A model generated the notes under the pieces. It saw nothing but the letters and a program-made list of their open reading frames with translations, ran no database searches and was not told the origin of the DNA. Positions 41,750-50,206 of a DNA stretch of 64,000 bases are shown here, in pieces (the first letter of the stretch is position 1; every line of letters begins with the position of its first letter). The position numbers and the translations under genes were made by a program. Source of the DNA: Escherichia coli (lineage in GTDB: Bacteria; Pseudomonadota; Gammaproteobacteria; Enterobacterales; Enterobacteriaceae); the NCBI RefSeq assembly GCF_046105845.1, contig NZ_CP151004.1; one strand, given 5' to 3'.

Positions 41750-41824
41750 ATTTATTAGATCAGGTGTGACCTGACCCATCTTTGGCACAGAGCCAAACCT
41801 GAACTGACGGACCGCTCTGTGCCA

Positions 41825-42130
41825 TTACCTGACGTTGTATTCTTTTATGTTAACACCCTTGATACTGTATATACCTGTCCGCTTAATTCGCTTGCCCTTT
41901 TTATTCGTAATAGTTGCTGTAAGTGTACTGCAGCGAATGGAATGACGTTCATCAATCACCAGCCGAATTGCTTCTGAAGCATCTTCCACCTCTAGAAGGT
42001 CGTGAGTCTTATTTAAGCCGAATGGAACAAGGTGGAAGGCCGTTTTTCCAGATGATTTTCTGGTTATTTTTACTGGATACAACACATCACCACTTTTATG
42101 GATTAATTCAAGCTGTTCAATGTAAATCAT
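41825..42130 (-). other. AT-rich degenerate ORF downstream of the yhcG-like fragment
   Basis: 101-aa ORF in the same frame as 42218-42574 but separated from it by two in-frame stops; markedly AT-rich; no motif recognised. Confidence 0.25.
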
Positions 42131-42217
42131 GGCAACTTTCCTTCGTTTATCTGCATGAATATATAAACCGAAAATAGGAGATGCAATACAAAAGCTGTGG
42201 AAATATCAAATAGCCTC

Positions 42218-42574
42218 TCAATTTGGCAGACAGCGTCTGCCAAATCTTTGCCGATGGGAATTCTGCAGAATTTCAACATGTTGATAAAAAAGGTAAAAAA
42301 GCTTCATTTGGCGTAAGTTTTTTGCAGAGACCCCACGTTTATACCGTCGACTTAAATCCTGCGATAACCGATCAATCAGCTGTGCAGCATAAGCCGCTCT
42401 TGCCTCGCCGCCTTGTTCAAATTCGACAATTCGTCGGCCAATTTCCCAGTATGTGGCGGTCATTAACGCGTTAACACTACGTACCGTTTCCGTCCGGGCG
42501 CTATCGACCAGGTGAATAATACCGTCGTGGATTTGCTGGTAGCCTGTTGAGGTTCTCTCTGAGAGCGATTCCAT
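42218..42574 (-). pseudogene. yhcG-like (DUF1016-family) N-terminal fragment, probably a gene remnant
   Basis: 118-aa ORF whose sequence (...VNALMTATYWEIGRRIVEFEQGGEARAAYAAQLIDRLSQDLSRRY...) resembles the N-terminal domain of YhcG/DUF1016 proteins; it ends in stops with no PD-(D/E)xK domain. Confidence 0.4.
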
Positions 42575-42727
42575 TATCTGTCCCTTTATATGGCGCTGCG
42601 TTGAATAATGGAATCAGCTATACGCCGGGCATCTACCGGTAACAATCCAGATGAGCGTATTACATTGGTTTTCTTCACATTATGCGAGGCACCTTCCAGC
42701 GAGGTGTCACGTTGTGGTGAAGATAAA

Positions 42728-42760
42728 TCAAAAAAGGCCGGAGCGGGCGTATCCGGCCAG
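42728..42760 (-). terminator. rho-independent terminator of the five-gene operon
   Basis: GGCCGG...CCGGCC hairpin 7 nt after the vWA gene stop, followed on the minus strand by a T6 run. Confidence 0.8.
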
Positions 42761-42765
42761 AATTT

Positions 42766-43935
42766 TCAGGCGGTTTCTCTTGCTGTCACTACGCCATTTT
42801 GCGCAGCCCACAGATTCACATCTTCCTTACGAATGGCGGCGGCCATCATGCCGGGGAATAAATCTGGGGTACAGGCAAAGGAGGGAATACCCATGGCGGC
42901 GAGTTTTCCTGCCAGTGACCGGTCGTAAAACGGCGCACCTTCATCGCTTAAGGCCAGCAGGGTAACCACCTGTACGCCGGACTGAATCAACTCACTGGCG
43001 CGTTGCAACAGATTGCGTTCCACCCCGCCTTCGTAGAGGTCGGAAATCAGCACCAGAATGGTATTGCGCGGATCGCGAATCAAAGACTGGCAGTAGCCCA
43101 CCGCGCGGTTGATGTCGGTGCCGCCACCCAGCTGTACGCCAAACAGCAGCTCTACCGGATCGTCGAGCTTCTCTGTCATATCAACGACTGCGGTGTCGAA
43201 AACCACCAGATGCGTTTTTACCGCCGGGAGCGATGCCATTACTGCGCCAAAAATACTGGAATAGACCACCGAGGAGGCCATCGACCCACTCTGGTCGATA
43301 CATAAAATGATCTCCTTTTGCGTGCGTTGAGACTTGCGCCCGTAGCCGATCAGCGTTTCAGGAACAATACTTTTATACTCTTCCTGCCAGTGGCGCAGGT
43401 TGGCGCGAATGGTGCGCTGCCAGTCAATTTCCGCGTGGCGCGGGCGACGATTACGTACCGCACGATTAAGAGCGCCGCTTACCGCGCTACGCATTGGCTC
43501 TTCAAGCTGTTTCATCAATTGCTCGACAACTTTACGCACCACAAGCCTGGCGGTTTCTTTGGTTTTGGCCGGAATTACGCCATTCAGCGACATCAGCGTG
43601 GAGACCAGATGAACATCAGGCTGGACGTTTGCCAGCATCTCTGGCTCCAGCAGCATACTGTGCAAATTAAGACGTTCAAAGGCGTCTTTTTGCATCACCT
43701 GAACCACAGAAGAAGGGAAATACTGGCGAATATCACCCAGCCAGCGAGCGACTTTGGGTGACGATCCACCCGTGCCGCCGCGTAATCCATGTTTACCGTC
43801 TGGCTGATAGAGCGCCGCCAGCGCGGCATCAATCGCGGACTCTCTGGCATCCAGCGCCACGTTACAGGCATTGTCGGCATCTTCTCCAAGGATCAGACGC
43901 CAGCGGCGCAGCCGTTCCATTTCGTTACTCGACAT
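42766..43935 (-). CDS. von Willebrand factor A (vWA) domain protein with an intact MIDAS motif; gene 5 of the operon
   Basis: 389-aa ORF with ILCIDQSGSM (DxSxS), a downstream GGGTD and LISDLYEGG; AAGGG Shine-Dalgarno; start overlaps the upstream gene by 11 nt. Confidence 0.8.
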   Translation of the reverse strand: MSSNEMERLRRWRLILGEDADNACNVALDARESAIDAALAALYQPDGKHGLRGGTGGSSPKVARWLGDIRQYFPSSVVQVMQKDAFERLNLHSMLLEPEMLANVQPDVHLVSTLMSLNGVIPAKTKETARLVVRKVVEQLMKQLEEPMRSAVSGALNRAVRNRRPRHAEIDWQRTIRANLRHWQEEYKSIVPETLIGYGRKSQRTQKEIILCIDQSGSMASSVVYSSIFGAVMASLPAVKTHLVVFDTAVVDMTEKLDDPVELLFGVQLGGGTDINRAVGYCQSLIRDPRNTILVLISDLYEGGVERNLLQRASELIQSGVQVVTLLALSDEGAPFYDRSLAGKLAAMGIPSFACTPDLFPGMMAAAIRKEDVNLWAAQNGVVTARETA

Positions 43936-46174
43936 GATTTTCCCTTTCGTGTGGTGGCAAAGCCAGAATGCGGCGCAGTAGCGGCAGCATTAACGCGGCA
44001 CGCTGTTCATCCCATATACCGCAGGTCTCTTCTTGCTGCGCGACACGCTCGCCCTGCGCGGCGCGTTCGCCTAACTGGCGGCGTTCCGGGCTGGAAAAAC
44101 GGCCGAATGTCCGCCGCAGCATCGGCAGGATCCGGGTGAAGTGATCGTCGTTCAGACCGCTTAGCCAGGCATCGATCAACTGCCATAATTCGCTATTGTG
44201 CAGTAGCACCATCGCGCTGTCGTTGAGGAAACCTTCCGCCCATGCGGCACTTTCCGCCGGGGGATTGGCTGGCGATAGCGCCAGGTTCATCAGCGTGGTG
44301 ATCCGTTCTGTCGTTAACGTTTGCAGATCAAACAGCAGGCGCGTCGCCGTTCCGCGAAGCAGCGCGTGTGCGGTACTGCCCTCTGCCAGCACCATCAACG
44401 CCTGCAACCAGCCCGCCAACAGATCTTCGTTATCCAGCAACCGCAGCGCGGCGTGGGCGTCGATAACTTTTTCTCTCATACTGGCGGCGCTGTCGTCGTT
44501 GAGCGCCGAACAGGCTCCGGGTAGGGCGATGGCGGCGCGCGGGGCGAGGCTCATCAGTACCTGCATTACCATACCAGAGTCGGTCTGGCGCACGTTGCCG
44601 TAGCGGACAATCGCCACCAGTGGTGCCAGGGATTCCAGCAACTGTTCGATATTGCCCTGAGTGGCAGCCAGTGATTCCAGTGTATTGGCGATGGGGGCAA
44701 TCGCGGTCTGTAAATCGGCCAGTAGCACCTGTTGGATAAGCTTTGCCAGTTCCGGCAGCGTGCTGGCGTATTGCGCCCTCACAATGGCATAGCGGGAGCT
44801 GGCCTGCTCAATGCTGTTACCCCAACGGCTGGCGGTAATGATGTTCATTGCCAGTGCCGGTTCCCAGCGCAGCGACCAGACTTCGTGGAACGTCCCTTTG
44901 CTGTTATTTCCTTGTCCAGCCAGACGGCCCCAGGGAATGTCGAGTAAGGTCAGGCGATGCAGTAAATGGCTACGCGCCAGATCGCCGGGGTTGCGCAGAT
45001 CAAGATCCAGCACTTTTTCGCTGGCTTCTGCCTTCAGGCGCAGCGTTTTTTGCTGTTGCGTAATGTCGCGTTGGAGCGGCACGACGGGCGTATCATCCGG
45101 TACGCTTCCCAGCGCGTAGCCGACAATTAACTTCTGGCGAATCATCTGCATTGGCGCGCTTTCGCCCATACACACTACGGTTTGCAGCGCTTCGCAAAGT
45201 TCGTCAAGCCCCGGCTGCGGGTGATGGCGCATAATCGCCAGCGTCTGCGCCAGCCGCGCCGCTTCGATAATGTGGGCGCTGGAACAGTCGAGATCGGCTT
45301 CGCGAAACAGCCTTGCCGCGCGTGACAGCCAGCCGATATCGCGGTGAGAAGCGCCCTGATAACGCCACAGATGATCGTACCATTCCGGTGACACCACCCC
45401 TGCGCCATAACCGCTGGCGCGGCTTAACGCCTCGTAGCTCCAGGGCGTCCAGGCTGCCGCGACCTTGCACTTCGGCAAATTTTTCAGCAGTTCGTTATCA
45501 TTCTTTGCGGGCGGCAGGTTTTCCAGCGCCGGAACGTGCCACGCACCGCAGACTACCGCGATGCGCGAGAAGCCCTCTTTTTTCGCCTGACGTAGCGTCT
45601 TGCGCATATACGCTTCACGCAGTTGATCTCTGGCTGAGTTTCGGGCTTCGGGAGTTGCCTGGCGTAGGGCAATCATCGCCTCGCGAATCGCCTCGAACAG
45701 AGACAAATCATCTTCGCGTTCCTCTACTCTGTGGCTCCACCAGCTTTCCCCATCGGTGTAACCGGCGGCGCGGCCCAGCCAGTCCAGCGGATCGCCGTCG
45801 GGACTGGCTTCAACGGCATCATCGTCATCGCTTTCTTTTTCGTCATCAAGCGCGAACTGATGACTGATGGGCAAGTCCATAAAGCGCACGGCGATATTTT
45901 GCTCAAAACCATAGCGCAGCGCCTGCCATTCCGGGGAGAACGCCGCAAAGGGGTAAAACGCGGCGTGATGTGAGTCGTCCGGGGCATAAATCAGTAGCGC
46001 GACCGGCGGTTGCATCTGTTCATGCTGCATGAAAGGCAGAATGGATTCGCCGTCGGGCGGCCCTTCCACCAGCAGGCAGTCGGGCTGTAGCGTCTCCAGC
46101 GCCTTTCGCAGGCTGCGCGCGCAGCCAGGGCCATGGTGACGGATGCCAAACAAATGAACGGTTTGTTCAGTCAT
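43925..46174 (-). CDS. large uncharacterised protein, gene 4 of the operon (from memory resembles DUF5682-type, YehM-like proteins; unverified)
   Basis: 749-aa ORF with E. coli-like codon usage, an AAGG Shine-Dalgarno 9 nt upstream and an internal acidic stretch (DDEKESDDDDAVEASPDGD); no catalytic motif recognised. Confidence 0.7.
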   Translation of the reverse strand: MTEQTVHLFGIRHHGPGCARSLRKALETLQPDCLLVEGPPDGESILPFMQHEQMQPPVALLIYAPDDSHHAAFYPFAAFSPEWQALRYGFEQNIAVRFMDLPISHQFALDDEKESDDDDAVEASPDGDPLDWLGRAAGYTDGESWWSHRVEEREDDLSLFEAIREAMIALRQATPEARNSARDQLREAYMRKTLRQAKKEGFSRIAVVCGAWHVPALENLPPAKNDNELLKNLPKCKVAAAWTPWSYEALSRASGYGAGVVSPEWYDHLWRYQGASHRDIGWLSRAARLFREADLDCSSAHIIEAARLAQTLAIMRHHPQPGLDELCEALQTVVCMGESAPMQMIRQKLIVGYALGSVPDDTPVVPLQRDITQQQKTLRLKAEASEKVLDLDLRNPGDLARSHLLHRLTLLDIPWGRLAGQGNNSKGTFHEVWSLRWEPALAMNIITASRWGNSIEQASSRYAIVRAQYASTLPELAKLIQQVLLADLQTAIAPIANTLESLAATQGNIEQLLESLAPLVAIVRYGNVRQTDSGMVMQVLMSLAPRAAIALPGACSALNDDSAASMREKVIDAHAALRLLDNEDLLAGWLQALMVLAEGSTAHALLRGTATRLLFDLQTLTTERITTLMNLALSPANPPAESAAWAEGFLNDSAMVLLHNSELWQLIDAWLSGLNDDHFTRILPMLRRTFGRFSSPERRQLGERAAQGERVAQQEETCGIWDEQRAALMLPLLRRILALPPHERENHVE

Positions 46175-46191
46175 AGTGGTTGCCTTGCTGA

Positions 46192-47286
46192 TTACACAAT
46201 TTCGCGGCAGGCGCGATAGAGATCGTTCCAGTCGCTGCGCTCTTTGACGATGGTTTCCAGATATTCACGCCATACCACGTCGTCCTGCACGGGGTCTTTT
46301 ACCACCGCGCCGACCAGGCTTGCGGCAATATCCCGCGGATGCAGTACGCCGTCGCCAAAATGGCCTGCCAGCGCCATACCGTTGTTGATAACGGAGATCG
46401 CCTCCGCGGTGCTGAGAGTGCTGGTTGGCGACTTAATTTTTGTTTTGCCGTCAACCGTCAGGCCGTTTCGTAGTTCGCGGAATATCTGCACGACTCGCTG
46501 AATCTCCTTTAATGCTGGTGGTTCGGCGGGCAGCGCAAGCGCCTGGCCGAGTTCAGCGACGCGGCGAGTGACAATGTTAATCTCTTCTTCTTCGCTGGCG
46601 GGTACGGGCAAAATAACTGTGTTGAAACGACGTTTAAGCGCGGAAGAAAGTTCGTTAACACCTTTATCCCGGTTGTTGGCGGTGGCGATAACGTTAAAGC
46701 CGCGCGTCGCCTGGACCTCTTCATTCAGTTCGGGGATAGGCAGCGTTTTTTCCGACAGGATCGTGATCAGCGTGTCCTGAACATCAGCAGGAATACGCGT
46801 CAGCTCTTCTACGCGTGCAATCTGCCCGCGCGCCATCGCCCGCATCAACGGACTTTCTACCAGCGCCGAACGTGACGGACCTTTAGAGAGCAACTCCGCG
46901 TAGTTCCAGCCATAACGCATTTGTTCTTCACCGGTGCCTGCGGTGCCCTGAATAATTAACGTTGAGTCGCCGCTGATGGCGGCCGCCAGATGTTCAGAGA
47001 CCCAGGATTTCGCAGTGCCGGGTACGCCATACAACAGCAGTGCGCGATCGGTTGCCAGAGTGGCAACGGCAGTTTCGATAATCCGCCGGTTGCCGATATA
47101 TTTCGGCGTGACCTCAAAGCCATTTTCCAGCTGCCCGCCCAACAGATAGGTGGCGACGGACCATGGAGAAATGGCCCAGTTTTCCGGGCGCGGATGAGTA
47201 TCGTTTTTTTGCAGCTCATCCAGTTCTTCAGCAAATTGTTGTTCGGCATGTCGGCGTAAAACGGCGGCAGTAGCGGTGGAAGTCAT
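46192..47286 (-). CDS. MoxR-family AAA+ ATPase, gene 3 of the operon
   Basis: 364-aa product from the ATG at 47286 (ATGA overlap with the upstream stop; GGAG Shine-Dalgarno). Walker A GVPGTAKS, Walker B region IARVEEL, sensor-1 NVIATANN, arginine motif ALKRRF. Confidence 0.85.
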   Translation of the reverse strand: MTSTATAAVLRRHAEQQFAEELDELQKNDTHPRPENWAISPWSVATYLLGGQLENGFEVTPKYIGNRRIIETAVATLATDRALLLYGVPGTAKSWVSEHLAAAISGDSTLIIQGTAGTGEEQMRYGWNYAELLSKGPSRSALVESPLMRAMARGQIARVEELTRIPADVQDTLITILSEKTLPIPELNEEVQATRGFNVIATANNRDKGVNELSSALKRRFNTVILPVPASEEEEINIVTRRVAELGQALALPAEPPALKEIQRVVQIFRELRNGLTVDGKTKIKSPTSTLSTAEAISVINNGMALAGHFGDGVLHPRDIAASLVGAVVKDPVQDDVVWREYLETIVKERSDWNDLYRACREIV

Positions 47287-48887
47287 AAAGTAGTTTCTCC
47301 GACAAAAAACGAATGAAGTTGAATTCGGTGCGCCAGCGTGGCGCTCAGGGCAGTAAAGGCTGCCTCGCAATAAGGCGTTTGTTGTGCGTCGTGCGGCCAC
47401 TTTTCAATGACATCATTGAGGACTTCGGGGGCCAGCAGGCAGGCGAAATCACTCATCACATGGCGCAGGGCGTAGTCAAAGCGCGCGGAATCATGTTTCA
47501 CCCAACGGTGCAGCTCCGTGACCATTTGCTGGCTCAGGCGCAGGCTAAAGAGCGACGCATCCGGCGGTAACAGGCTGATGTAGCGATGTAAATGTTCGCC
47601 GCCCACCACTGAGAACAATGACCGTAACATCGGCTCGTGTTCTTCTACAGGCAGACATTGCAAAAGCTCAAAGGCGTTAATCTTCACGCCTGCAGTATGA
47701 TGAATGCTCATTCCGACGGGCAGCATGGCGAGAAACGCCTGCGCCCACTGCGGATTTTTTTCGCGCAGTACGGCGTGATACCAGGCGCGCAGTAGCGCCT
47801 CCTGCCAGTCGGTTTTCCCGGCCCAGCGCAGCAGTTCAACGGGGGTAGCCTGCAGTTGCGTTTGCCACCAGTCGAGCGGAACCGCTGCAACTATCTGATA
47901 CAGCCACCATGCGCGCTGGCCCAACTTTTCGCCTTTGGGCTTAGTTTCTTCCAGCGCATCGGCCTTCCACTCTGGTAAGAACGCCTCCGGGGCATCAAGG
48001 GCGACGCGCAGCGTTTTTTCTCCGCGCAGTAAACCTTTTCGCCGCGCAAGCCAGCTCTCAGGATCGGGGGAGGAATTGAGCAGCGGCGCTAACCTGGACT
48101 TCATGCGCCAGACCCAGGCGCTTTCTGGCAGACAAAGCAGTAATCGTGCCGCAGTTTGCCGCACCTCTTTGCTGCGATCGGATAATGTCTGTTCCAGAAA
48201 GGCTTCGTCGTATTGGGAGATCTCCACTTCCAGCACAGCCAGCAGCTGTGCGCGTTCGCGGGCATCCAGCGAACTCATCTCCTGCGCCAGCCGATCGCGA
48301 CCCTGTTCCGGGGCGCGAATGCGCATTTGCGTCAGATATTGCAGACGCTGTTCGGACGTGCCGTGCAGCCACATTTCTTCATCCAGCGGAGCGTCAACGG
48401 AGGCAAGAAAATAGCGCCAGTCGGCGTTAATCTGCGCCAGCCAGCGCCCGCGAGCGCCGAGGACATTGGGCAGAATGCCGCGTATTGATGGATTTTGTAC
48501 GCCGTAATTCAGCAGTGCCGGTAACAGCAGGGGCGGAGAAAGAAGCTGACGCTGGACCAGGTGATCAAGCGCTGACCACAGTAAACGCGGCGGCCCTTCT
48601 GCCAGCAACAGATGCAGCAGTCCCGCAAAAGCCGGGTTGTTTATTGGCTCGGCATTTTCTTTATCGATTTCCGGCAGCGGTGCGGGGTCAATCGCCTGCG
48701 GCTCCCAGCCAGCCAGATGGCAGAGTGCCAGAACGCCCGCCGAGCGCAGTAGCTGTTGCTCTGCAGATGTGTTATTCGCCAGTTCAGACAGTAGCAGCCC
48801 AATCTCACTTTGCGACGCTGACGGTGTAAACGCTTTTTTGTCTGTGCCGAGTAGCGCTGTGCGGGTTAAATTTTTCCATTCGTTCAT
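47283..48887 (-). CDS. uncharacterised Leu/Trp-rich protein, gene 2 of the operon (from memory resembles DUF5691-type proteins; unverified)
   Basis: 534-aa product from the ATG at 48887 (ATGA overlap with the SWIM gene stop; GGAGG Shine-Dalgarno 8 nt upstream); the track ORF begins at an upstream TTG. Confidence 0.7.
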   Translation of the reverse strand: MNEWKNLTRTALLGTDKKAFTPSASQSEIGLLLSELANNTSAEQQLLRSAGVLALCHLAGWEPQAIDPAPLPEIDKENAEPINNPAFAGLLHLLLAEGPPRLLWSALDHLVQRQLLSPPLLLPALLNYGVQNPSIRGILPNVLGARGRWLAQINADWRYFLASVDAPLDEEMWLHGTSEQRLQYLTQMRIRAPEQGRDRLAQEMSSLDARERAQLLAVLEVEISQYDEAFLEQTLSDRSKEVRQTAARLLLCLPESAWVWRMKSRLAPLLNSSPDPESWLARRKGLLRGEKTLRVALDAPEAFLPEWKADALEETKPKGEKLGQRAWWLYQIVAAVPLDWWQTQLQATPVELLRWAGKTDWQEALLRAWYHAVLREKNPQWAQAFLAMLPVGMSIHHTAGVKINAFELLQCLPVEEHEPMLRSLFSVVGGEHLHRYISLLPPDASLFSLRLSQQMVTELHRWVKHDSARFDYALRHVMSDFACLLAPEVLNDVIEKWPHDAQQTPYCEAAFTALSATLAHRIQLHSFFVGETTL

Positions 48888-50206
48888 TGTGCGCCTCCGG
48901 TTGCCCAAATCACGCTACCGGCAAGCCAGGCGCTACAGGGCGTCAGTTGCTGACCGTCCCATTCCCCCATTAGCATAAACGGCGCGCCGCCGCTGGCAGC
49001 CAGTAACCGCCAACCCTCGTCCGATGACAGGAGCGTCGGTAAGTGCTGGCCCTGTGTCGAGACGAATCGCCAGCCGCTCTCGTGCGGGTAAATCAATATT
49101 TCGCTTACTCGCAGCGGCAGAGGCCATTGCCAGGGATTCGCGCTAAGCCGCTGCGCCATGTCATGCAGCGCGTCCGGGAGGGGTAATTCTGCAAGCGGGA
49201 ATCTTTCACCGCGGGTAAACGGCTCCACAACCCGCGCCCGTAGCGGTGATGCGCCAGGGAAAAAGGCAAGCGCGCCCTGGCAGACTTGCCCGGTGATAAA
49301 GTGCTGGGGAAAGTTTTTACCACCGTGTGAATAGTCCAGCAGTAGCGCGGTGCGGTGGCTCTTTTCTCCGTACAACCAGACCCGGCGTCGCCACAGATTA
49401 TTCTCTTCTTGCGCGCTTTGACCTAAGATCTGCCAGTTATCGAGGCAGGTTAATCCGTCAGTGACGTCGTGTTTTTCCGGGGGTATTCCCAATGCCGCAT
49501 GGAGATCGCTAAGTTGTGCCGGGGATAACATTTGTTGCTGGCGCCAGGCGTCAATAATCAGCTGTAGCTGCCCCAGTTCTTTGCACAGGCTCGATGGCCA
49601 TACCTCGGCGGTAGTAAAAAGAGTGGTCAGATTGTTCAGGCGAGCGGCAATTCCCGGTAGTTGGGCGTCGACCATGCGGGCGGCGATCCCGGCAAAAGGC
49701 AACTGTTGTGCAGAGATCTGCGCCAGACCGTGGCGGATCAGGTCGTGCATCCACTGTTCGAGGAAATCCAGCCCCGCCGTCATTTTTTGGTTACGTGCCG
49801 CTTCCCGTTTGGCGGCAGCCTGCGGGTCGGCAGCTTTTGCCTCAGCCTGCTCTTTCTTCTCTTCTTTGTGAACCGCCCGCTGCTGGCGCGAGGTTAGCCA
49901 CTCGCTTACCCATTCCGGCGGCTCGCCAGCGGTGAAACTTGCGGTGTGTTGCACCTGGAGCAAAAGCAACGCAAGGCTATGTTTACAGGGGAATTTACGG
50001 CTGGGGCAGGAACATTTACAGGCCAGATCCTGTCTGTCGATTCGTACCTGATAAGGGCGGGAGCCGCTACCTTTACACTCTCCCCAGAAGGCGGTCTCGC
50101 TATATCCCAGCGTCGGCCATTTTGCGGGGGCAACCAGGCCACGAGCCGCTTTAACCGAGGCGTCATCGGGCGCCAGGGCTTGCACTGATTCAACGGTCAG
50201 TTCCAT
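48884..50206 (-). CDS. SWIM zinc-finger domain protein, gene 1 of the operon
   Basis: 440-aa ORF with a CxCxnCxH motif (CKCSCPSRKFPCKH) near residue 60, then a Lys/Glu/Ala-rich charged linker and a C-terminal domain of unknown function. Confidence 0.8.
   Translation of the reverse strand: MELTVESVQALAPDDASVKAARGLVAPAKWPTLGYSETAFWGECKGSGSRPYQVRIDRQDLACKCSCPSRKFPCKHSLALLLLQVQHTASFTAGEPPEWVSEWLTSRQQRAVHKEEKKEQAEAKAADPQAAAKREAARNQKMTAGLDFLEQWMHDLIRHGLAQISAQQLPFAGIAARMVDAQLPGIAARLNNLTTLFTTAEVWPSSLCKELGQLQLIIDAWRQQQMLSPAQLSDLHAALGIPPEKHDVTDGLTCLDNWQILGQSAQEENNLWRRRVWLYGEKSHRTALLLDYSHGGKNFPQHFITGQVCQGALAFFPGASPLRARVVEPFTRGERFPLAELPLPDALHDMAQRLSANPWQWPLPLRVSEILIYPHESGWRFVSTQGQHLPTLLSSDEGWRLLAASGGAPFMLMGEWDGQQLTPCSAWLAGSVIWATGGAQ

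Follow-up and report, generated by a model that had tools for sequence, protein, structure and literature searches.

The MoxR AAA+ ATPases form seven subfamilies, one of which is named for YehL, and E. coli K-12 has two MoxR proteins, RavA and YehL (PMC3893208). The activity of RavA is enhanced by the VWA protein ViaA (PMC3893208), and RavA, which binds LdcI, contains LARA and triple-helix domains (PMC6987120). In the NorQ-NorD system, a finger of the VWA protein sits inside the AAA+ pore, and the partner is twisted as ATP is slowly turned over, at ∼13 per min per hexamer for NorQ and at 18 with NorD (PMC13036017). The targets of NorQ-NorD and CbbQ-CbbO (the CGN subfamily) are NO reductase metal insertion and Rubisco activation, respectively, while CoxD-CoxE acts in CO dehydrogenase maturation and midasin (Rea1) in eukaryotic ribosome assembly. 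In the literature searched we found no functional papers on the YehL subfamily, on yehL, yehM, yehP or yehQ, or on the DUF5682/DUF5691 system, and no biochemical data for any YehL-subfamily protein; the subfamily is thus without functional papers in that literature, though yehLMPQ is near-core in E. coli. YehL is annotated in K-12 as a putative AAA(+) MoxR family ATPase. The division of the MoxR proteins into subfamilies is reportedly due to Snider and Houry (2006).

We analyzed a stretch of 64,000 nucleotides of E. coli DNA (contig NZ_CP151004.1 of assembly GCF_046105845.1; the window), in which a gene on the minus strand (46192..47286) encodes a protein of 364 residues that is, by both its sequence and its neighbourhood, a MoxR AAA+ ATPase of the YehL subfamily. 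The gene was taken from the list of open reading frames and its product matches Pfam AAA_5 (E 1e-38); the ATG (47286-47284) shares the sequence ATGA with the TGA of the upstream gene. A start at the GTG at 47400 (402 aa) was dropped, since homologues and RefSeq begin at the ATG, which overlaps the upstream stop. The orthologue in SMS-3-5 has identical boundaries in RefSeq, where it is labelled ‘ATP-binding protein’.

The preliminary description had placed four motifs in this protein, and all four were recovered at these places when we re-translated the DNA. On the minus strand, Walker A reads GVPGTAKS (47005..47028), with A92 in the second-Gly position followed by K93 and S94; Walker B reads IARVEEL (46801..46821), with R158, E160 (codon GAA, 46807-46809) in the Asp position and E161 (codon GAG, 46804-46806) as the catalytic Glu; sensor 1 reads ATAN (46675..46686), in which N204 closes strand beta4; and KRRF (46624..46635) supplies R219 and R220 as arginine-finger candidates. 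A candidate for sensor 2 is R273 (46468..46470, minus strand, within FRELR), which is invariant in the homologue alignment and lies in a lid helix (259-274) of the predicted structure. The P-loop, Walker B, sensor 1, arginine finger and sensor 2 are found in canonical order on an alpha/beta core with a helical lid, and the sole departure is the Glu that replaces the Walker B Asp.

The Glu-Glu pair had been taken for a variant of this particular enzyme, with the proviso that it might instead be the norm of the family, and it is the latter that is borne out by the homologue census and by K-12 YehL. Both G[VSL]PGTAKS and AR[VI]EELTR are present in 120 of the 120 closest database clusters (78–99% identity), a set that includes E. 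coli, Superficieibacter, Pseudomonas, Bilophila, Roseateles and Verrucomicrobium. To sample the family more widely, we used the best 150 representatives of 50%-identity clusters, which reach down to ∼40% identity. Among these best 150, the residue at position 160 is Glu in 120/124, that at 161 is Glu in 120/125 and that at 158 is Arg in 124/126, such that the Glu-Glu pair occurs in ∼97%; position 92 is Ala in 90/112 and Gly in 16/112, and K93 (107/113), N204 (100/115), R219 (105/112) and R220 (103/111) are likewise retained. R-h-E-E is found in all 73 of the ATPases from a scan of species-representative genomes. K-12 YehL, which is 41% identical to the window ATPase, reads GEPGTAKS and IVRFEEITR. 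The Arg two residues ahead of the acidic pair, which was overlooked in the preliminary description, is as invariant as the pair itself, and Q113, at the end of beta2, is also invariant in the homologue alignment. Since the motifs are invariant in relatives, they are due neither to chance nor to a strain-specific change. We infer instead that selection has fixed both GxPGTAK[ST] and the block around Walker B, G-x-h-h-R-h-E-E-h-T-R, as hallmarks of the YehL subfamily, and that neither is a lesion or a local variant. The subfamily signature, GxPGTAK[ST] plus hhRhEEhTR, was derived in this analysis and not from the literature; the window ATPase has both parts. Because the motifs are a subfamily signature, they reveal nothing special about the enzyme of this strain, which can be annotated as a YehL-subfamily MoxR ATPase; it is an ordinary representative, strongly conserved, of a known MoxR subfamily.

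The claim that Glu-Glu stands where Asp-Glu is usual holds when the comparison is extended beyond the subfamily, as the other MoxR proteins, midasin and NorQ have Asp at the position of E160. K-12 RavA has the P-loop LLGPPGIAKSL and the Walker B IVFLDEIWKA; the MoxR-proper structure 2R44 has GVPGLAKT and FILADEV; the midasin modules aligned by phmmer have DE in Walker B (IED in AAA1) and Gly at the second-Gly position of the P-loop; and the Walker B of NorQ is described as having an Asp that binds Mg, with E109, the catalytic Glu, directly after it. At the position of R158, the relatives compared outside the subfamily (midasin, RavA and 2R44) have Leu, Val or Phe. Among these relatives (RavA, 2R44, midasin and NorQ), Glu at the Mg-ligand Asp position together with Arg two residues earlier thus appears only in the YehL subfamily. 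A search of ∼1.7 Mb of loci found no further MoxR-type paralogues for comparison of Walker B. The P-loop Ala had been compared to that of RavA, and the motif given for it, GPPGIAKS, is indeed that of K-12 RavA with Ala at the second-Gly position. However, the P-loop is not specifically RavA-like: 2R44 has the Ala as well, and the family profile misses RavA at E≤1e-3, to which the window ATPase is 16% identical. The Ala is common to the YehL, RavA and MoxR-proper subfamilies.

The assignment to the YehL subfamily draws on both similarity and gene neighbourhood. The window ATPase is 41% identical to K-12 YehL over 350 residues, the full length, with an E-value of 1e-77. Its match to Pfam AAA_3 (MoxR-proper) scores 23.2 bits, under the gathering score of 27, and therefore the MoxR-proper subfamily is excluded, but not the wider MoxR family as defined in PMC3893208. 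The protein is a single-module ATPase encoded near a VWA gene with a MIDAS, the two co-occurring in 65 of the 80 loci from the genome scan; with the AAA_5 match, the similarity to YehL and the VWA_CoxE gene in the operon, the earlier identification of a MoxR-family AAA+ ATPase with a vWA partner stands. In a search of solved structures with the family profile, midasin modules gave the best matches (E 1.7e-31), followed by the MoxR structure 2R44 (3.8e-8) and NorQ (6.6e-5), and RavA was not recovered at E≤1e-3. We considered membership in the RavA subfamily and rejected it, given the low identity to RavA, a C-terminal helical bundle that has no match in RavA, and the lack of ldcI or viaA nearby. 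A role as an anti-phage defence system was also considered and rejected; for the ATPase, PADLOC-DB 2.0 gave only two IetA P-loop matches, both of them sub-threshold (E ∼1e-3), and for the partners it gave none. NCBIfam gave only far-sub-threshold matches to MadB and GvpN for the ATPase, and none for the partners.

The window ATPase is the third gene of an operon on the minus strand, in the order SWIM, DUF5691, ATPase, DUF5682, VWA_CoxE. The operon is translationally coupled and its genes are tightly packed: the first two junctions each have an ATGA overlap, and at the last the genes overlap by 11 bases. Scans of the operon for promoters and terminators gave counts equal to the shuffle background. 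The first gene (48884..50206) encodes a SWIM zinc-finger protein of 440 aa (Pfam SWIM, E 6.6e-7; CxC..CxH at 49961-50032), and is co-located with the ATPase gene in most loci scanned. The second (47283..48887), with an ATGA overlap at both ends, encodes a DUF5691 protein of 534 aa from the ATG at 48887 (Pfam DUF5691, E 4e-121), with a HEAT-like repeat of consensus LxDRSxxVRxxAAxLL. Following the ATPase gene, the DUF5682 (YehM-like) gene (43925..46174) encodes 749 aa, with a putative TIKI/TraB/ChaN-like N-terminal domain and a remainder that is a HEAT/MIF4G-like helical solenoid. Family invariants of the DUF5682 protein are two GxxH motifs, G10-I-R-H13-H14 and G210-A-W-H213, and E37, E82, R12 and R186; its N-terminal domain tentatively appears to be a TIKI/TraB-like hydrolase (of the TIKI/TraB/ChaN/erythromycin-esterase superfamily), and a Foldseek search gave no confirmation of a TIKI/TraB-like match. 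The last gene (42766..43935) encodes a VWA_CoxE (YehP-like) protein of 389 aa (Pfam VWA_CoxE, E 2.7e-52) that is 37% identical to YehP. Its MIDAS is intact, with D214-x-S-x-S218 (43282-43296), T273 and D299 invariant in 51 of 51 homologues.

The closest described system is yehL-yehM-yehP-yehQ of K-12, whose partners belong to the same families (YehM is a DUF5682 protein, YehP a VWA_CoxE protein and YehQ a SWIM protein), and the gene order ATPase-DUF5682-VWA is found in both. The same three-gene order, with one further gene after it, also occurs with a 41%-identical homologue, as in K-12, where that gene encodes YehQ (SWIM). However, yehQ lies downstream, whereas the SWIM gene of the window is upstream and is accompanied by a separate DUF5691 gene with no yeh counterpart; in hhalign comparisons of YehQ with the SWIM and DUF5691 families, probabilities were <6%. 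The two systems also differ in their distribution, since yehL is near-core in E. coli (5218 of 5426 complete genomes), compared to 33 of 5426 for the window operon, and it is the window version that is found across about ten phyla at 70–80% identity, among the matches listed. We view the operon as a rarer relative of yehLMPQ.

Other relatives resemble the window system in the pairing of an ATPase with a VWA partner, but differ in sequence, architecture or associated genes. In a search with an AlphaFold model of the ATPase (made from a 28-sequence alignment; pLDDT 92.5, pTM 0.89), the top fold matches were NorQ (9qh4) and CbbQ (AfCbbQ2, 6l1q), with a TM of ∼0.8 normalized to NorQ and 17–20% identity; MCM and dynein also matched. 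The NorQ-NorD and CbbQ-CbbO systems share with the window the helix-2 insert, the pre-sensor-1 hairpin and a VWA partner with DxSxS-T-D, but apart from their low identity and their distinct targets, NorQ has an Asp-Glu Walker B and does not have the ∼60-residue N-terminal extension or the ∼70-residue C-terminal bundle of the window ATPase. Midasin likewise matches Pfam AAA_5 and pairs an AAA ring with a MIDAS/VWA domain, located at its C terminus; however, it is a single chain of 4900 residues with six fused modules, whereas the ATPase and VWA protein of the window are separate small proteins. RavA-ViaA resembles the window system in its MoxR ATPase, its Ala P-loop and the VWA partner encoded in the same operon, but differs in the canonical DE Walker B and in the extent of sequence divergence. 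CoxD-CoxE also pairs a MoxR-type ATPase with a CoxE-type VWA protein, but the third component of the window system is a DUF5682 protein, and no gene for CO dehydrogenase or another metalloenzyme was found in the operon or in its conserved neighbourhood.

The five families are found together in ∼60 of 83 loci, and are colinear in 41 of these, from many phyla. In Streptomyces, the SWIM and DUF5691 genes are divergent from ATPase-DUF5682-VWA, and in one Nocardia locus SWIM and DUF5691 share a single ORF. Across the scanned loci, we found no sixth conserved gene family around the operon, Streptomyces synteny aside. In the 31 loci with all five genes, the median identity to the window is 74% for the ATPase, 61% for VWA, 46% for DUF5682, 36.5% for SWIM and 30% for DUF5691.

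The conservation of the ATPase is high over great evolutionary distances. Among the matches listed, the window ATPase is 68–82% identical to those of Cellvibrionaceae, Verrucomicrobia, Chitinophaga (Bacteroidota), cyanobacteria, Chloroflexi, Acidobacteria, Planctomycetes, Deinococcus and Streptomyces (Actinobacteria), and matches occur in at least 596 species. The ∼70% identity between E. coli and Streptomyces is at the level of housekeeping proteins, yet the distribution is patchy. Compared to its orthologue in SMS-3-5, the ATPase gene has 49 synonymous changes and 1 nonsynonymous change (pN/pS 0.007), which points to extreme purifying selection.

The reading that best explains these observations as a whole, and in which we have good confidence, is that the protein is a YehL-subfamily MoxR ATPase whose motifs are selected hallmarks and which probably works as a ring that engages its VWA partner. 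The ATPase is most likely a working hexameric enzyme, because K93, S94, E161, N204, R219/R220 and R273 are conserved and purifying selection is extreme; purifying selection would equally keep a nucleotide-binding switch that hydrolyses very slowly. By analogy to NorQ-NorD and RavA-ViaA, the ring would engage the CoxE-type VWA protein, the product of the second gene downstream, and the invariant metal site of this partner may grip a target by holding a target carboxylate. ATP turnover would then remodel either the target held by the VWA protein or the DUF5682 protein. The TIKI-like DUF5682 protein, in which a helical scaffold would carry a putative TIKI/TraB-type hydrolase, could be a regulated effector or a client. 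The less conserved SWIM and DUF5691 proteins might be adaptors or sensors. The MIDAS-bearing VWA protein, the putative TIKI/TraB-like hydrolase, the SWIM protein and the HEAT-like protein each provide a handle on the role of the system.

One alternative concerns only the rate, and is compatible with a working ring: the enzyme may, owing to its Glu-Glu Walker B alone or in combination with the P-loop Ala, be an intrinsically slow ATPase that is switched on by partners, much as the preliminary description supposed. We consider this possible but rather unlikely. E160 occupies the position of the Mg-coordinating Asp with a side chain that is one methylene longer, and the invariant Arg two residues earlier is on the same face of beta3. 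Since E160 and R158 share this face (i, i+2), a salt bridge between them or an altered Mg geometry is plausible in the model. Moreover, the invariant Q113 is located where the glutamate-switch residue is expected and could be the partner in such a switch. P-loop ATPases are generally impaired when the Mg-ligand Asp is replaced by Glu, and thus an unusual or low rate would be compatible with this site. Characterized MoxR enzymes are also slow and modulated by their partners, as is the case for NorQ with NorD and RavA with ViaA. However, MoxR enzymes are as a rule slow and dependent on partners, with a canonical DE too, and therefore these traits are not attributable to Glu-Glu; furthermore, the invariance across the family and the extreme constraint favour an optimized over an impaired site.

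A bolder proposal, which we regard as doubtful, is that R-h-E-E provides a distinct active-site chemistry, with altered metal coordination or an Arg-gated Glu, in a constrained motor that, with the MIDAS adaptor, drives or gates a TIKI-type DUF5682 protease or hydrolase. If true, this would define a widespread ‘split midasin-like’ machine for ATP-dependent processing in about ten bacterial phyla, of which yehLMPQ would be the K-12 relative. In themselves, the invariant Glu at the Mg-ligand position and the Arg embedded in the strand depart from the hhhhDE rule of AAA+ proteins in a clean and testable way.

It is highly improbable that the protein is a pseudo-ATPase or a pure nucleotide-binding scaffold in which hydrolysis was lost through the change of Asp to Glu. 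While the canonical Walker B Asp is indeed missing across the family, degenerate AAA+ modules usually lose several catalytic residues, and here E161, the P-loop Lys and Ser, the sensor-1 Asn, both Arg residues of KRRF and R273 are conserved at 87–100%. The pN/pS of 0.007 also argues against this possibility.

There is scarcely any room for the possibility that Walker B was misassigned and that another part of the protein contains a canonical hhhhDE. Pfam AAA_5, phmmer, MAFFT and the AlphaFold model agree that Walker B is indeed IARVEEL, and all four motifs are correctly assigned. The Pfam AAA_5 match runs end to end (profile 2–139 of 139, 132.9 bits). In a phmmer search against PDB sequences, GQIARVEELTRIP was aligned to the midasin segments GEWLLLDEVNLA, GYWIVLDELNLAP, GNFFLLDEISLA and GEWVLLDEMNLA, in which LLLDEV, IVLDEL, FLLDEI and VLLDEM lie opposite IARVEEL. 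The alignment to RavA, one of the checks proposed in advance, was run by MAFFT with YehL included, and it places E160/E161 over RavA D114/E115. In the model, strand beta3 spans residues 156–160, with E160 as its last residue and E161 next. Beta1 (82–87) precedes the P-loop, beta4 (198–204) ends at the sensor-1 N204 and is followed by a helix (215–220) that bears R219/R220 and by beta5 (221–225), and lid helices (232–274) carry the invariant R273. The predicted fold has both hairpins that mark the helix-2-insert clade of AAA+ proteins (MoxR, midasin, dynein and chelatase), that of the helix-2 insert at 125–127/142–144 and that before sensor 1 at 181–184/189–192, as well as an N-terminal extension of ∼60 residues and a C-terminal helical bundle of ∼70 residues. 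Thus three independent alignments (to midasin, to RavA and to full-length AAA_5) and the predicted beta3 all give residues 156–161, while no hydrophobic strand precedes D171 (in a QD pair after beta3), the one remaining acidic residue that is invariant in the ATPase core, and neither the alignments nor the model gave any support for a Walker B elsewhere in the ATPase. Finally, the chance that Glu-Glu and Ala arose by mutation in this strain alone, or through an error in sequencing the window, is negligible, as hundreds of species and 33 E. coli genomes have the same residues, and the homologue census gave no evidence for either.

Within E. coli, the copies of the operon in the 33 complete genomes are 97.5–98.2% identical to that in the window, and the window gltB is at most 98.1% identical to that of any of these 33 genomes, which is the same divergence as that of the operon. 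Immediately upstream of the operon is gltBD; in SMS-3-5 the operon is found between gltD and nan genes, adjoining a DUF1016 remnant. We considered whether the operon is cargo of mobile elements and rejected this idea; of the 49 plasmid records on which the ATPase was detected by tblastn, most are megaplasmids or chromids and 36 are non-mobilizable. The ATPase is also found in one unannotated ‘Bacteriophage sp.’ contig, with an identity and E-value equal to those of a Fusobacterium record in the plasmid collection, and therefore this contig is possibly bacterial DNA.

Synonymous divergence between two E. coli lineages is not uniform across the operon. When the window genes (42766-50206, minus strand) are compared with those of E. 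coli SMS-3-5 (locus L001), pS is 0.18 for the YehL-subfamily MoxR ATPase gene (46192-47286) and 0.15 for the DUF5691 gene (47283-48887), but only 0.01-0.03 for the SWIM, DUF5682 and VWA genes. This mosaic pattern, high in two adjacent genes and low in the other three, suggests that a segment of roughly 46.2-48.9 kb may have been recombined. In these lineages the operon lies with gltD on one side and the nan operon on the other, and the divergence of the island equals that of the core; at the gltD-nan locus, the operon gives the appearance of a long-standing insertion or replacement. The flank regions correspond to window 41750-42766 and L001 5092-5995, and the operon flanks in SMS-3-5 hold small hypothetical genes and the remnant of a DUF1016 pseudogene.

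The ATPase is 68-82% identical over about ten bacterial phyla (window versus L007-L086, loci with ATPase homologues; among the matches listed), and in the same comparison the identity of its operon partners goes down to 30-61%. The constraint on the ATPase is thus at housekeeping level, though the gene is patchily distributed. At the loci of Acaryochloris marina (L022) and Xanthocytophaga flavus (L023), the ATPase is 73-74% identical, and the full 10 kb flanks around it showed no member of the four partner families. Gln113 (46948-46950), the last residue of strand beta2, does not vary across the family alignment; it occupies the position in which the 'glutamate switch' residues of AAA+ proteins occur, which makes it a candidate for such a role.

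Gene arrangement elsewhere suggests that the operon may consist of two functional sub-modules, because SWIM and DUF5691 are joined in a single ORF in Nocardia aurantiaca (L072, 7068-9977) and, in Streptomyces (L057-L086), form a separate unit divergent from ATPase-DUF5682-VWA. A mechanical ORF call starts DUF5691 at a TTG at 48908 (48884-48908). The ATG at 48887 agrees with the RefSeq start in SMS-3-5 and forms an ATGA overlap with the stop codon of SWIM, and thus the product is probably 534 amino acids.

The YehM-like DUF5682 protein (43925-46174, minus strand) carries two invariant GxxH motifs in its N-terminal part, GIRHH (46133-46147) and GAWH (45536-45547), together with conserved Glu and Arg residues, and a HEAT/MIF4G-like solenoid follows this domain. 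The N-terminus seems to be a TIKI/TraB/ChaN/erythromycin-esterase-like domain; Foldseek did not confirm such a domain in DUF5682, and we found no account of it for YehM-like proteins in the literature searched.

The related yehLMPQ genes of K-12 are preceded by yehI, which encodes a 1210-amino-acid DUF4132 protein, yehK (yehI and yehK, L087 5280-9290) and the yehH pseudogene; the window operon has no counterpart of any of these. Among solved structures, the closest relatives of the ATPase are midasin AAA modules, and Walker B of yeast midasin AAA1 (PDB 6i27_A, residues ∼325-345) reads VLIEDIDKAP, with Glu-Asp rather than Asp-Glu, a further naturally occurring exception to hhhhDE.
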